A DNA stretch of 64,000 nucleotides from Candidatus Acetothermia bacterium (GCA_016201405.1 JACQCZ010000017.1:89227-153226), one strand, 5' to 3'. Shown: positions 36,337 to 41,831, counted from the first letter of the stretch. The notes: a model not told the origin generated them from the letters alone. Program-made: numbers and translations.

Positions 36337-36345
36337 GATTTAGGC
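36337..36345 (+). repeat. Left 9-bp target-site duplication GATTTAGGC
   Basis: Identical to 41823-41831; abuts the left TIR. Confidence 0.92.
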
Positions 36346-36366
36346 GGCTTTGCCTCAAATCTATCG

Positions 36367-36825
36367 TTACACGCCGACTTCTGAGGCAGAGTTGGGACAT
36401 TTGGGGCAAGGGTTTTTTGTTTGTATTGTCTCGGAACTTATTCTTTCAGTTATTTCGTCCAAATCGTGTAGAGAATGCTCCCAAAATCTTAAGACTTTCC
36501 ATCCCTGTTCTATCAAAATGCCATTTATCCTTTTATCTCTTAAAATATTTGAATCGATTTTGTTCGACCAGTACTTCCGGTTCGACTTTGGCCTTCGATG
36601 ACATTGAGGGCATCCATGCCAAAAGCACCCGTCTACAAAAACCGCAACTTTATCTGCTTCAAAAATGAAATCGGGGCAACCTGGAACCTCTTTCATGTGC
36701 ATTCTCCATCCTCGAAGTTTCGCCCTCATCAAAGCGCATCTTAGTCTTCGTTCAGTGGAGACGTTACCCGTTGATCGAACTCGGCTCATTATAGCCGAGC
36801 GTTTTGACCTGCTAACTCTATCCAT
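36367..36825 (-). CDS. vsr: Very-short-patch repair endonuclease
   Basis: RSAIMSRVRS, PGCPD, FVDGCFWHGC and GWKVLRFWEH motifs. Confidence 0.95.
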   Translation of the reverse strand: MDRVSRSKRSAIMSRVRSTGNVSTERRLRCALMRAKLRGWRMHMKEVPGCPDFIFEADKVAVFVDGCFWHGCPQCHRRPKSNRKYWSNKIDSNILRDKRINGILIEQGWKVLRFWEHSLHDLDEITERISSETIQTKNPCPKCPNSASEVGV

Positions 36826-37934
36826 TCTGTTTTTCTCTTGCTGTCAGGCGATATGGGCGGCAGACCATGAAATGCTTCAGCTACTGTTAAATATCTGTTG
36901 GGGACGAGTAATCCAGGGGATTCCGCATGCGTGGGTGTAGGTAGAGTAGCTTTACCCAACTCTTTCTTTGTGCCTATGAAAATGATCCGTTTTCTGAGTT
37001 GCGGAGTTCCGAAGTCCGCGGCGCTCAGTACTCCATAATCGACATTGTATCCTAGCCTTTCCATTTCTCGGAGAATTTGGCGCAAAAAAACGCCCTCTTT
37101 AATTCCTTTTAGTCCCTTCACGTTTTCCATAACGAAATACCGTGGGCAGATTGTGGCCACAAAACGCAAAAACTCTCCAATGAGTTGACCGCGAGGATCG
37201 TCCTCCCCTTTTTGTTTACCCGCTTGGCTGAAAGATTGGCAAGGTGGACCACCATAGATTAACCATATGTCGCTTCTGTCCAATCCTGCCTGTTTAGAGA
37301 ATTCGACCGGATCGTCTACGCCTCGAATATCTCCCAGAACAACTTTTGTGCCTCTGCCTAAATAATGATTTAAGGACTCGCAACAATCTTTGTCGTTGTC
37401 AAGGGCAGATCGGGTGCGAAACTGTGACCCGTCGAAATTGGCCTTGGCCGCGCCGATGTCCATCCCACCCGCTCCGCTGAAAAGACTTATCGCGTCAAAA
37501 TGCTTGAGATTGGGCGCGACTGTAGATGCGTGTGACAGCACAGATCGGAATATCGCTTCCGCCAAGGGAATCGGAACAGCGTTTCCCACTTGTTGTTGGA
37601 CGCTAGTTAGAGTTCCCTTAAATTCCATTTCATCAGGGAAGCCCTGCAAGCGGGCGGCCTCCCGAGGCGTAATAAATCGATTTTCAAAAGGATGTACAAA
37701 CTTGTTAAAAATATATGCGGTAACTGTCAAAGACGGCTTATTGGGGTCTAGTCGAATCATTCTTAAATTCGGTCCGCCTCGTCTTGTGGGGTCTTCCTTT
37801 ACATAAAACCGAAAGCTTTTGTGCCATAGGTGTTCTGGTAGGTCTTGCATTCGCTCTCCGATGCCGAGCGCCGTTATCCGCTCCTGAACTTCTGGACCGA
37901 CTTTTCTCGTTTGGTGATTTAATACTATGCTCAT
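36789..37934 (-). CDS. DNA (cytosine-5)-methyltransferase, circularly permuted
   Basis: Order is TRD, IX (REAARLQGFP), X (QVGNAVP), I (LFSGAGG), IV (GGPPCQSFS), VI (ENV), VIII (QLRKRIIFIG). Confidence 0.93.
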   Translation of the reverse strand: MSIVLNHQTRKVGPEVQERITALGIGERMQDLPEHLWHKSFRFYVKEDPTRRGGPNLRMIRLDPNKPSLTVTAYIFNKFVHPFENRFITPREAARLQGFPDEMEFKGTLTSVQQQVGNAVPIPLAEAIFRSVLSHASTVAPNLKHFDAISLFSGAGGMDIGAAKANFDGSQFRTRSALDNDKDCCESLNHYLGRGTKVVLGDIRGVDDPVEFSKQAGLDRSDIWLIYGGPPCQSFSQAGKQKGEDDPRGQLIGEFLRFVATICPRYFVMENVKGLKGIKEGVFLRQILREMERLGYNVDYGVLSAADFGTPQLRKRIIFIGTKKELGKATLPTPTHAESPGLLVPNRYLTVAEAFHGLPPISPDSKRKTEWIELAGQNARL

Positions 37935-37943
37935 GGTCTTATC

Positions 37944-39242
37944 CTAGAAAGTAAAGATGGATTTAACCCAAGGGTCTCGCGCCGTCGTCTCCGTTAAAGA
38001 GATTATGCCGTCGAATAGATTGAAAAGCTCAGTGCCTGGTGGTAGTTGTGAGGCTATCTTGACGTTGCCAGTTTCGTCTTTAGTCCAAATAATATCTTTC
38101 AATGGTTTAAGAAATTCGTCAAAATGTCGGACCGCGTGAATATTAGACACAACGCCCACTAAATATCGATATTGTGACGCTGGCTTACCCTCCGCGCCCA
38201 GCTTTAAAACTTGGTAGGCGCTCTTTTTAATGTCATCAGTTCTGTCCATCCCGACACTCGTTTTCCCGTCGGACACGGTTTCATACCCTTCGCCCGATGA
38301 GCGTAGAGGCCAAGAGGCAGGTCGCGGTCTTGGGGGGCCACATGCGTTTGTAAGCCAATAAACTGGTGTATTTTCGCGCCCCGCGTAAGAACCAAAAGCG
38401 TGAAGCCAGAACGAGCAGTAGGCGGGAAAGAAAGATTTATCGTCCTTTAGTAATTGGGTGATTCCGCGATATGCCCAATCGCCGTCGCCAGGGCCTTGTT
38501 TTTTGCCTAGCGGGAACTTAGCAATACTCCAATGAAGGGAATCTGATCTGGCTAACATTGGGATGCAAATGGAAATTTCAGAATTGTAAAGATTTACGCT
38601 TACTTCCTCATGGGTCGCAACCGTTATCGATGTATCGTTTTCCTCGACGGTTAATACGTCTGTTCTTACAGCAAGCGGGGAGGTGGTCAGTGGGGCAGAT
38701 TTTATTTCGGCAAAGAGCGCAGTGGGCTGCTGCATATCTCTTTCGATAAATATAACATCTACCGGCTCTGAGGCTTTTAGTATTTCTACGGATTTGTCTG
38801 AGCGAGTCATGAGCTCCCCAAAAAACAAGGCGAGCAACCTAGAGGTCGCCACTCCAATAGTGCCTGATTGTGGTTTTTTGGCCTGGGAATAGTGGAAATC
38901 GCCGGACATGACGCAGTGAGGGCAAACGTTTGTATAAGGGTAATAGCAAGTTGGATCGTCGAGATTCGATGGGCAGTAAATCCATTTTAAGTGGGAAACT
39001 GATCGATAATATTCTGCCGCGACAAGCAAATCGAAGGCGGCGGCCAACAAATATCGACGATCCCTATAGAACTCACTCTCTGTGGCGTTCCCCGGAAGTT
39101 GTGTTGCATTTGTCGCGTCAATAACGGCCCTCAACAGTTCATGCTCCGATGGAGTTATGGGGAAAGGCGATGCGGACTGGATCGCCCTCTCAATCCAATC
39201 ATGATTTTCTAAGTTTGCTTGTTTTTCGATGGGAGCGTCCAT
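37944..39242 (-). CDS. Putative type II restriction endonuclease
   Basis: VDVIFI...FAEIKS PD-(D/E)xK-like motif and CPHC; first gene of an operon with a C5-MTase and vsr. Confidence 0.7.
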   Translation of the reverse strand: MDAPIEKQANLENHDWIERAIQSASPFPITPSEHELLRAVIDATNATQLPGNATESEFYRDRRYLLAAAFDLLVAAEYYRSVSHLKWIYCPSNLDDPTCYYPYTNVCPHCVMSGDFHYSQAKKPQSGTIGVATSRLLALFFGELMTRSDKSVEILKASEPVDVIFIERDMQQPTALFAEIKSAPLTTSPLAVRTDVLTVEENDTSITVATHEEVSVNLYNSEISICIPMLARSDSLHWSIAKFPLGKKQGPGDGDWAYRGITQLLKDDKSFFPAYCSFWLHAFGSYAGRENTPVYWLTNACGPPRPRPASWPLRSSGEGYETVSDGKTSVGMDRTDDIKKSAYQVLKLGAEGKPASQYRYLVGVVSNIHAVRHFDEFLKPLKDIIWTKDETGNVKIASQLPPGTELFNLFDGIISLTETTARDPWVKSIFTF

Positions 39243-39248
39243 AGACTC

Positions 39249-40741: not shown

Positions 40742-40883
40742 GCTGCCAATCTTGTGGCTAATCTTAAATCAAAGAATCTCTATCTACCCTTATGGTGTCA
40801 AGTGGGCTTGACTATGGTAAAATGAAGATTTATGTTATGGATGTCCGACGTATTATTTATAATCCAATAGAGCATTAACAGAA

Positions 40884-41456
40884 ATGATAAAGCAAAATAA
40901 GTTAGAGACAGAGCAGCAATCGGGTGATGTTAAGCTCGAAGAATTGATTGTGTTTTTTGCGCAAGAGTGCATTGGAGACAAACACTTTGGGGCTACAAAA
41001 CTGAATAAGCTCCTTTTTACAGCCGATTTTTGGGCTCATGCGTATCTTGGGCGTTCAATAACTGGCACTAAATACATACGCCAACAATTCGGGCCAACTC
41101 CCGATCCAGACCTGTTCTTGAAAATACGTCAATCTTTAATTGATGATGGCCGTATTACTATCGTAGGTGAAGAGACTTATCGTGGCATACGACAACGACC
41201 AATTGCTTTGACAGAACCTAATCTCCAAATCTTCGACAAAAACGAAATCGCATTATGTCGAGATATAATTGAGTTCTTAAGGCCGCTGTACGGAGTTGAA
41301 AGCAGCGAGTGGTCGCATGAGTTTCCTGGATGGCAATACACCAACGAAGGCGACACCATCCCATATGAATCAGTGTTTCTTTGGCGAAAAGAGCCAGTAA
41401 CTCAAGAAGATAAGGAGTGGGCTAAATCAATCGGTCAGCAATTGGGATTGATATGA
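40884..41456 (+). CDS. Panacea (DUF4065/GepA/SocA-like) antitoxin
   Basis: GATKLNKLLFTADF...GRSITG..Y..QQFGPTP and late SH...W motif. Confidence 0.85.
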   Translation: MIKQNKLETEQQSGDVKLEELIVFFAQECIGDKHFGATKLNKLLFTADFWAHAYLGRSITGTKYIRQQFGPTPDPDLFLKIRQSLIDDGRITIVGEETYRGIRQRPIALTEPNLQIFDKNEIALCRDIIEFLRPLYGVESSEWSHEFPGWQYTNEGDTIPYESVFLWRKEPVTQEDKEWAKSIGQQLGLI

Positions 41457-41460
41457 AACT

Positions 41461-41763
41461 TTGGGAATTGCAAGAATTGAAGTATCAGAGTGCAAAGGAT
41501 TCCAGAAACACATAAAGGCCAGTGGAGACCCGTCAGTCTCTGCCGAAGTTGCACAAGGTTGTAAGCACATTCTATCAAGCAATCCTTTTTATGGCGATCA
41601 AATTTTCCCCAACTCACGCCTTTATGTCTTACGCACCACTCCATTCCCACCTAGAGTCCCGCAATATAGAGTCGTATATGAGTTTGATGCAATAAAGACA
41701 CCTGACCGCCTTGAACTTATAGCTATCCAAGAACTGCCGGTAAATAAAGGCAACCGCTTCTAG
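41461..41763 (+). CDS. Putative RelE/ParE-like toxin (start uncertain)
   Basis: About 100 aa directly after Panacea; LSSNPFYG...LYVLRT...YRVVYEFD. Confidence 0.55.
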   Translation: MGIARIEVSECKGFQKHIKASGDPSVSAEVAQGCKHILSSNPFYGDQIFPNSRLYVLRTTPFPPRVPQYRVVYEFDAIKTPDRLELIAIQELPVNKGNRF

Positions 41764-41822
41764 CAGGGATTTTGAGGCAGATCGTGGAGATTTAAGGCAA
41801 AACAGACATCTGGGGCAAAGCC

Positions 41823-41831
41823 GATTTAGGC
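41823..41831 (+). repeat. Right 9-bp target-site duplication GATTTAGGC
   Basis: Identical to 36337-36345; abuts the right TIR. Confidence 0.92.

Follow-up and report, generated by a model that had tools for sequence, protein, structure and literature searches.

The 64,000-nucleotide stretch of Candidatus Acetothermia bacterium analysed here (GCA_016201405.1 JACQCZ010000017.1:89227-153226; hereafter the window) contains at positions 36346-41822 a 5,477-bp element with one transposase gene in its middle and other genes on both sides of it. The transposase is predicted to consist of an N-terminal SWIM zinc finger followed by a DDE_Tnp_1 domain (SWIM-DDE), and its gene, which is interrupted by an in-frame TGA, lies back to back with a small gene for a Zn-ribbon protein. 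Downstream of the transposase gene are genes for a type II restriction endonuclease (REase), a C5 cytosine DNA methyltransferase (MTase) and a very-short-patch repair endonuclease (Vsr), while a Panacea gene and a small open reading frame (ORF) are found beyond the Zn-ribbon gene. The whole is enclosed by terminal inverted repeats (TIRs) that match at 14 of 17 positions, GGCTTTGCCTCAAATCT and, on the other strand, GGCTTTGCCCCAGATGT, both of which start with GGCTTTGCC, and the TIRs are directly bordered by a perfect 9-bp direct repeat, GATTTAGGC, which is the target-site duplication (TSD). We consider it highly probable that this is one insertion of a cargo-carrying transposon, i.e., a transporter insertion sequence (IS) or small unit transposon, with a SWIM-DDE and Zn-ribbon core and multi-repeat ends, and that it is now most likely immobilised.

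The borders were located by an unbiased scan for perfect 9-bp direct repeats flanking inverted ends with at least 12 of 17 matching positions, up to 10 kb on either side of the transposase gene. The GATTTAGGC pair was the sole result, in agreement with the TSD and the imperfect 17-bp TIRs proposed in the initial annotation. The 12-mer GGCTTTGCCYCA, searched without mismatch, occurs at two sites in the window, both at the ends of the element. Compared with 96 other 5,477-bp segments of the window (minimum 47.4%, mean 50.7%), the element has the lowest G+C content (46.0%). Its left neighbour is an epimerase/DUF1731 gene on the minus strand that starts at 36296 and its right neighbour a DUF885 gene on the plus strand that starts at 41931, so that the element split a 148-bp spacer between two divergent genes.

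The unoccupied target site is found in public sequencing data. Six runs contain part of the stretch, four of which were aligned to the window; among them, run X5, a groundwater metagenome from a study different from the likely source, contains 0.13 of the sampled words of the stretch, and run X6 contains 0.10. One contig of X5 (record 17, 350 letters) aligns to 41823-42160 with 8 differences in 338 letters, and its other 12 letters, ATATCCCATTAT, are exactly window positions 36325-36336, just left of the left TSD copy. In a second contig (record 16), position 36321 is joined to 41859 via 51 letters, made up of 24 (36322-36345) and 27 (41832-41858). Both contigs read left flank, one GATTTAGGC and right flank, with the element absent, as had been anticipated for an empty site between the two flanking genes. 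Run X4 leaves 36746-36939 and 40188-40426 uncovered; these gaps lie where contigs of low depth break off and are uninformative. In a DNA search of the genomes of 30 relatives, the flanking genes were found only as ~65% identical pieces on separate contigs, with no readable junction. The element is a real, single transposon insertion. Although ends that match imperfectly might be expected if the repeats had arisen by chance in an ordinary genomic island acquired otherwise, such an origin is exceedingly improbable in view of the single result of the scan, the precise empty site and the recurrence of the terminal octamer in 42 independent elements of the family described below, and no integrase or recombinase gene is found among the ORFs inside the element. 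The features of the element are listed in the table.

Table. Features of the transposon and of its borders, with positions counted from the first letter of the window
Feature	Position	Strand	Evidence
TSD, left copy, GATTTAGGC	36337..36345	.	Scan; single copy in the empty site of run X5
TIR, downstream end (3' side of transposase gene), GGCTTTGCCTCAAATCT	36346..36362	+	Positions 1-8, GGCTTTGC, near-invariant in 43 elements
Vsr endonuclease, cargo	36367..36825	-	Pfam Vsr, 1.8e-18; TIGR00632, 121 bits (cut-off 97.85); PADLOC Vsr, 2.2e-18
Two subterminal motif copies, inverted	36381-36390 and 36401-36410	-	Layout 4(+)/36(-)/56(-) recurs at downstream ends of relatives
C5 cytosine DNA MTase, cargo	36789..37934	-	Pfam DNA_methylase, 1.7e-66; TIGR00675; PADLOC MTase_II, 5e-87
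Type II REase, 432 amino acids, cargo	37944..39242	-	PADLOC REase_II PDLC03440, 3.2e-101, profile positions 51-417 of 417
Transposase, IS903-like DDE part past the stop	39286..40206	-	Pfam DDE_Tnp_1 PF01609, 3.2e-20; NCBIfam IS5_2, 110.6 bits (cut-off 140)
In-frame TGA within transposase gene	40207..40209	-	Frame reading and alignment
Transposase, N-terminal SWIM zinc-finger part	40210..40482	-	ATG at 40482; Pfam SWIM PF04434, 1.3e-07, 31.4 bits (cut-off 19.6)
Divergent control region	40500..40573	.	Consensus matches only
Small Zn-ribbon protein, 52 amino acids	40583..40741	+	Recurrence in related loci by tblastn; no Pfam family reaches its cut-off
Panacea (SocA-like) domain protein, putative antitoxin, cargo	40884..41456	+	Pfam SocA_Panacea PF13274, 1.6e-09, 39.1 bits (cut-off 25.7)
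ORF of 100 amino acids, putative toxin	41461..41763	+	Starts 4 nt past the Panacea gene
Two subterminal motif copies, direct, upstream end (5' side of transposase gene)	41792-41801 and 41772-41781	-	Layout 4/22/42, direct, recurs in relatives
TIR, upstream end (5' side of transposase gene), GGCTTTGCCCCAGATGT	41806..41822	-	Scan
TSD, right copy, GATTTAGGC	41823..41831	.	Scan and empty site

Related transposons are found in many other genomes. When one genome per species was scanned, 554 stretches were found to encode relatives of the transposase, and the best 80 of them were used with 10-kb flanks. These 80 loci come from Alphaproteobacteria, Acidobacteriota, Verrucomicrobiota, Planctomycetota, Chloroflexota and one DPANN archaeon, and nearly all are in metagenome-assembled genomes. 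A first scan recovered GGCTTTGC-type ends with a perfect 9-bp TSD in 42 loci, and chance pairs in it matched at exactly 12 of 17 positions and lacked GGCTTTG. A second scan with a stricter end pattern yielded a perfect TSD in 40 loci, a perfect TSD offset by one base at the upstream end in seven and a TSD with eight of nine matches in three; together with two further loci with slightly variant ends that were bounded in the first scan only, 52 of the 80 loci are bounded (49 with a perfect TSD and 3 at 8/9). In these 52 loci the SWIM-DDE homologues share the ends of the window's element, as the initial annotation had supposed. The bounded elements range from 2,327 to 7,031 bp with a median of ~4.3 kb, and none is a bare IS of ~1-1.3 kb. 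Searching one member against 1.84 billion cluster representatives returned 1,235 clusters at 50% identity (E<=1e-30), and 16 full-length SWIM-DDE relatives are on IMG/VR contigs classed as viral (L110-L125). For nine of the 16, ends of this type with a perfect TSD delimit an element of 2,985-4,490 bp; L120 and L121, both among the nine, have identical ends and TSD and may be one element filed twice. The IMG/VR members may reflect insertion into prophages, or the contigs may have been misclassed.

The in-frame TGA separates a 94-codon SWIM ORF from a 306-codon stop-to-stop frame with the DDE_Tnp_1 domain, and the two share one reading frame with only the TGA between them. The read-through product has 401 residues, of which 96-99% of the length aligns to proteins of 393-468 amino acids with 55-62% identity, and 7,994 of the 8,000 candidates scored in the homologue search were matches. 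The column of the TGA is Trp in all 11 homologues of a 12-row alignment (A1); a stop at this position is seen in none of the 80 related loci, and the 58 in which a motif search could place the position all have Trp. Both the Cys and His residues of the SWIM signature CxCxnCxH (C49, C51, C61 and H63) and the D210, D286 and E348 triad with the Y-2-R-3-E-6-K motif (Y341, R344, E348 and K355) are invariant in A1 and present in the window copy. The simplest reading of the stop is a single TGG-to-TGA lesion at a near-invariant Trp. As this change truncates the transposase after the SWIM finger, it most likely immobilised this copy, which is probably immobile today. Elsewhere in the same genome, the transposase is matched by a copy with a frameshift and a TAG and by a fragment of 58 residues; both are broken, and no intact helper transposase was seen in this assembly, which is 90.8% complete. 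In the earlier description of a transposon that moves anti-phage and addiction modules, "moves" is, for this copy with its premature TGA, probably in the past tense.

An alternative is that the element is still mobile because tRNA-Trp misreads a leaky UGA and restores the Trp, in which case a little full-length transposase would be made and the stop would serve as a brake on transposition. The stop is exactly at the position of a Trp codon and the next base is C, UGA-C being the weakest termination context in Escherichia coli; moreover, the rest of the 401-codon frame is open, with all catalytic residues intact. However, the consistent presence of Trp and absence of a stop in the related loci argue for a one-off change rather than a family feature, and the gene's own terminator is also TGA, the codon that ends 18 of the 44 long ORFs in the window. 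We regard a leaky stop as improbable and favour the simple lesion.

The Zn-ribbon gene, which the initial annotation counted as cargo, turned out to be a conserved core gene of the family. By tblastn it is detected in 44 of the 80 loci, and in 41 of them it lies divergently, at a distance of 108-290 bp on the upstream side of the transposase gene, a position that marks it as core rather than cargo. An alignment of 34 copies shows four invariant Cys, two invariant Trp and two invariant Pro, followed by a basic tail. In loci without the Zn-ribbon gene, the same slot is occupied by an HTH_3-type cluster (seven), DUF6471 proteins (four), NikA-like ribbon-helix-helix (RHH) proteins (five) or small proteins without a Pfam match (four), so that ~61 of the 80 loci have a small gene, mostly of DNA-binding type, at this place. 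Between the two divergent genes of the window's element is a promoter-like site, TTGACA-17-TACACT (40528-40500), that faces the transposase start and is the best of the whole element, and a second one (40545-40573) faces the Zn-ribbon gene; the palindrome ACCCCTATGAGGGGT (40528-40542) lies between the two -35 boxes. Palindromes of at least six pairs are present in ~20 of the 41 spacers between Zn-ribbon and transposase genes, which is noted as a bare count. Because unrelated helix-turn-helix (HTH), DUF6471 and RHH proteins fill the same slot, we infer that the slot holds an exchangeable DNA-binding regulator and that the Zn-ribbon protein probably acts on the back-to-back promoters. Rather than a transcriptional regulator, the protein might be a cofactor that transposition requires and that contacts the transposase or the ends, in the manner of the Myb-like protein of eukaryotic PIF/Harbinger elements. 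Its tight and always divergent linkage to the transposase gene would fit such a role, as would the invariant Cys and Trp residues with the basic tail and the smallest bounded element (L094, 2,327 bp), which carries nothing other than the Zn-ribbon and transposase genes. Nonetheless, unrelated small DNA-binding proteins replace it in other members, and such exchange is more in keeping with a regulator than with an invariable subunit of an enzyme, which makes an obligatory cofactor unlikely. Prediction of a complex between an intact transposase (alignment A4) and the Zn-ribbon partner (A3) scored at the bottom of its scale; it gave no answer and is neutral either way.

Both ends of the transposon contain repeated motifs. 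In the window's element, the terminal motif is at positions 4, 22 and 42 of the upstream end (the 5' side of the transposase gene), all in direct orientation, and at 4 (direct), 36 and 56 (both inverted) of the downstream end, as compared with a background of 0.17 matches per 120 bp. Under a strict two-mismatch rule in 42 elements, upstream ends have a direct copy near 22 in 17 elements, near 42 in 16 and at both places in 11, and an inverted copy near 36 in 3; at downstream ends, an inverted copy at 36 is combined with a direct copy at 53 or an inverted copy at 56 in 19, and direct copies near 22 or 42 are found in 5. Column counts show TGCC at positions 24-27 of the upstream ends in 26-37 of 43 elements, with no such signal downstream, and the first eight positions read GGCTTTGC at both ends in 39-43 of the 43, window included. 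Each end holds about three copies of a TTTGCCYCAA-like motif in an asymmetric layout, with the outermost copy inside GGCTTTGCC. The TSDs of the 43 elements are enriched in C/G at their first two positions and in G/C at their last two (e.g., CCCTTGGGG, CCACAAGGG and CCTGGAGGG), which may reflect a weak preference for palindromic targets, no more than a weak CC...GG bias, from which the window's own target site departs. In seven loci (L032, L041, L045, L049, L061, L078 and L094) the TSD is perfect only if the upstream end extends one base beyond GGCTTTG, which suggests a subgroup with one extra terminal base.

The genes inside the inverted ends of the window's element include two groups unrelated to transposition, all of which are missing from the empty site. 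The REase, MTase and vsr genes follow one another directly on a single strand, with an overlap of 37 nt between the MTase gene and vsr, and are predicted to constitute a type II restriction-modification (R-M) system with Vsr; no Pfam family matches the REase. The profile matches from Pfam, TIGRFAM-type models and PADLOC confirm the REase-MTase-Vsr order read earlier to the left of the transposase gene, and all three genes are recognised by the PADLOC models given in the table. Of the toxin-antitoxin (TA) pair proposed on the other side, the Panacea domain stands, while the partner, the 100-amino-acid ORF, is of no recognisable family. No homologue of this ORF was found in Pfam, PADLOC, a PDB sequence search or a word-index search; the ESM Atlas offered leads only, to DUF4258-like and ParE-like clusters (0.91-0.94), and a single-sequence AF2 model was poor (pLDDT 53). 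Consensus matches assign promoter-like sites of their own to the R-M/Vsr module and to the Panacea pair, and the cargo genes are still open reading frames. The element is fixed in this genome as an insertion that is probably dead and would still supply an R-M system. Run X6, a sediment metagenome from a third study, has short contigs over 37606-39384, of which those on the REase gene (37606-39103) are 85-98% alike to it, and others alike to part of vsr and the 3' end of the transposase gene; one contig spans the REase/transposase junction, and most of the window flanks are uncovered. Another organism may harbour a related element that carries the same cargo.

The cargo of the family is variable. 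The 42 elements bounded in the first scan contain 174 ORFs of at least 70 amino acids, of which the 145 of at least 88 amino acids were classified and the 29 shorter ones left out; the figures are tallies over all ORFs, not per element, and refer to the best-scoring 80 loci of one collection. Pfam matched 58 families, and each of the 25 families listed occurs in at most four ORFs. DNA methylases are commonest (N6_Mtase, 4; D12, 3; N6_N4, 2; C5, 1), followed by SDH protease (3), Peptidase_M78 (2), HSDR_N (2) and NA-iREase1 (2), and there are single matches to Panacea, Nmad2, PDDEXK_11, DUF3800, a protein kinase and a transporter. The top PADLOC results are methylase and type IIG models, with mad2 in six ORFs. 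Judged by these profile matches, R-M-type genes are the most frequent recognisable cargo of the family.

Several individual members are worth recording. Some relatives (e.g., P0149, P0193, P0205 and P0209) match the transposase from about residue 90 only and have other N-termini of 70-160 amino acids in place of the SWIM finger, and the DDE core thus seems to be combined with different N-terminal domains. A contig of Candidatus Aenigmatarchaeota archaeon (L096, 6086-11235) contains a 5,150-bp member with perfect 17-bp ends, AGCTTTGTTGAATAAGT, and a 9-bp TSD, in which the partner protein is a double Zn ribbon and a 302-amino-acid cargo ORF resembles D12-class adenine methylases and is a candidate for one. 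The Acetothermia genome itself holds a second, decayed member of 4,279 bp (C3:361729-366007; L108, 6730-11008) with ends GGCTTTGCACAATATCT and GGCTTTGCACAAAATCT that match at 16 of 17 positions and no matching 9-bp TSD; its SWIM-DDE gene is broken by a frame change and a TAG, and it contains a GmrSD type IV restriction gene and a divergent gene for a NikA-like RHH protein. In the same genome, the pattern GGCTTTGCCYCARAT with up to two mismatches has 32 sites, as compared with 5 for a reversed control, including a site with one mismatch at C4:99965-99979. The extra sites may be solo ends, derivatives similar to miniature inverted-repeat transposable elements or further elements.

Among known elements, the closest likeness is to the IS903 group of the IS5 family, which is defined by GGC ends, a 9-bp TSD and a length of 950-1,150 bp. 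Intact members of the family align to positions 2-287 of 289 of the NCBIfam model IS5_2 (NF033579), starting at about residue 90, and score below its cut-off of 140 bits (113-121 bits for three intact homologues; the DDE part in the window, see table). In 72,556 PLSDB plasmids no record covers 80% of the family transposase, and the best matches, at 23-26% identity, are annotated as IS5-like ISAte1, ISVa2, ISSod12, ISAs4 and ISEc35. Three of these were fetched (ISVa2, ISEc35 and ISAte1): they are 1,048-1,054 bp long with ends GGCTTTGTTGC or GGCGTTGTTGC, which start with GGCTTTG in ISVa2 and ISAte1 and nearly identically in ISEc35, and the ISEc35 copy has a 9-bp TSD. Shared features are the DDE_Tnp_1 domain with YREK, the GGCTTTG ends and the 9-bp TSD, and the ends of the archaeal member, AGCTTTGTTGAATAAGT, are close to the IS903 repeat. 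In contrast, the three ISs have ~1,050 bp, one protein of ~305-315 amino acids and simple ends, whereas the element in the window has 5,477 bp with seven further ORFs and its family is characterised by a ~90-amino-acid SWIM part in a ~400-amino-acid transposase, a divergent partner gene, multi-repeat asymmetric ends and, nearly always, cargo.

Other transposons share single aspects of this architecture. Transporter ISs, which occur in the IS1595 family, likewise have one transposase, inverted ends and passenger genes inside the ends. Such ISs are occasional members in the families known to contain them, whereas none of the 52 bounded elements here is shorter than 2.3 kb and the median is ~4.3 kb. 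ISDsp3 of the IS6 family is described as a transporter IS with passenger genes (PMC7986276). Tn7-like ends are reported to be asymmetric and to contain several repeated transposase-binding sites (PMC9308760). The window family resembles Tn7-like elements in its asymmetric multi-repeat ends and in cargo rich in R-M and other defence genes. Defence genes are reportedly a subject of the survey of Tn7-like cargo by Benler et al. of 2021. Tn7 nevertheless relies on the multi-protein machine TnsA-E, with an RNase H-fold TnsB of another family, a 5-bp TSD and site-specific targeting, whereas the window family has a single IS5-type enzyme, a 9-bp TSD and at most a weak target bias. Among eukaryotic elements, PIF/Harbinger transposons combine an IS5-related DDE enzyme with a separate Myb-like DNA-binding protein, and Mutator-like elements (MULEs) have SWIM fingers. 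The former are comparable to the window family in that an IS5-type DDE enzyme is accompanied by a small DNA-binding protein, and the latter in that a SWIM finger is attached to a DDE transposase; however, the SWIM finger of MULEs is C-terminal and their DDE fold of the Mutator type, and both groups belong to another domain of life. ISKra4, considered for its 9-bp TSD and passengers, was rejected, as no NCBIfam ISKra4 model matched and ISKra4 is filed with Mutator-type enzymes.

The literature searched contains no description of such a family and no link between SWIM and a prokaryotic IS5/DDE_Tnp_1 transposase, and an IS or transposon of the same architecture was encountered neither there nor in NCBIfam or PLSDB, ISfinder and TnCentral being outside the comparison. 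Within this scope, the family appears to be a very large, apparently unnamed relative of IS903 that routinely carries passengers. Members may already be catalogued, e.g., as an ISfinder IS5-family or unclassified entry, in which case the element would be a further member of a named group. The ends and TSD length are those of the IS903 group, so that curators could have filed members there, and as two catalogues are outside the comparison, the family is no more than apparently unnamed. On the other hand, names in NCBI/nr are just "transposase" and never "ISxxx family transposase", and the IS5_2 scores of 110-121 bits, the lack of a relative covering 80% in PLSDB with a best identity of 26% and the silence of the literature searched on SWIM fingers in such transposases all speak for a family without an entry. 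We regard prior cataloguing as a possibility of some weight, but a doubtful one. The empty site, the ends of the relatives and the lack of a described match together uphold the initial view of a unit transposon of a poorly characterised SWIM-DDE family.

Several observations weigh against this interpretation, including the uncompared catalogues just mentioned. The organism behind the empty-site contigs is a diverged relative, with 8 differences over 338 letters and 20-21 over about 140, and the site is represented by two short assembled Logan contigs rather than by raw reads. Twenty-eight of the 80 loci are unbounded; 16 of them lack an end motif on one side, and in 14 of these the contig ends within 4.4 kb on that side. 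The Acetothermia genome holds one copy of the window's element, and no transposition event has been observed. The putative toxin is without a detectable family, and the case for the Zn-ribbon protein as a regulator consists of gene position and the identity of the proteins that replace it.

IS903, IS10/IS50 and other DDE enzymes of the IS4/IS5 type are models for terminal binding, synapsis, excision and joining. By analogy with IS903 and IS4/IS5-type enzymes, we infer a cut-and-paste mechanism in which the transposase would bind the terminal repeats, pair the ends, excise the element and insert it where the target strands are cut 9 bp apart. Long, repeat-bearing ends may require further contacts with DNA or protein, which the SWIM finger may provide, and the small partner protein probably represses the back-to-back promoters. 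If active, the R-M/Vsr and Panacea genes would protect the host from phages and, through addiction, penalise loss of the element. Such a penalty could be the reason why the cargo is intact while the transposase decays.

We tentatively propose, as a possibility still short of an even chance, that an unclassified and very large branch of IS5/IS903-type transposons, present in many bacterial phyla, a DPANN archaeon and contigs called viral, serves specifically as a shuttle on which restriction, toxin-antitoxin and other defence genes move, built on a SWIM-DDE core, an exchangeable regulator and multi-repeat ends. Phages, satellites, integrative elements and Tn7-like transposons are established carriers of defence genes, to which a one-enzyme, IS903-like transposon that nearly always has passengers would add an abundant and easily recognised vehicle. 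What sets the family apart from its ~1-kb relatives is the SWIM finger, the interchangeable gene for the putative regulator and the asymmetric ends with three repeats, and these three features may explain how an IS-type enzyme copes with long and variable cargo. The family is recognised by GGCTTTGC ends, a 9-bp TSD and a SWIM-DDE gene, mainly in uncultured soil and groundwater bacteria. As each element can be delimited with single-base precision, an automatic inventory of the cargo of thousands of them could be drawn up and searched for unknown defence or addiction modules, and, if the proposed shuttle is real, the many cargo ORFs that belong to no family would be a rich source of new defence systems.

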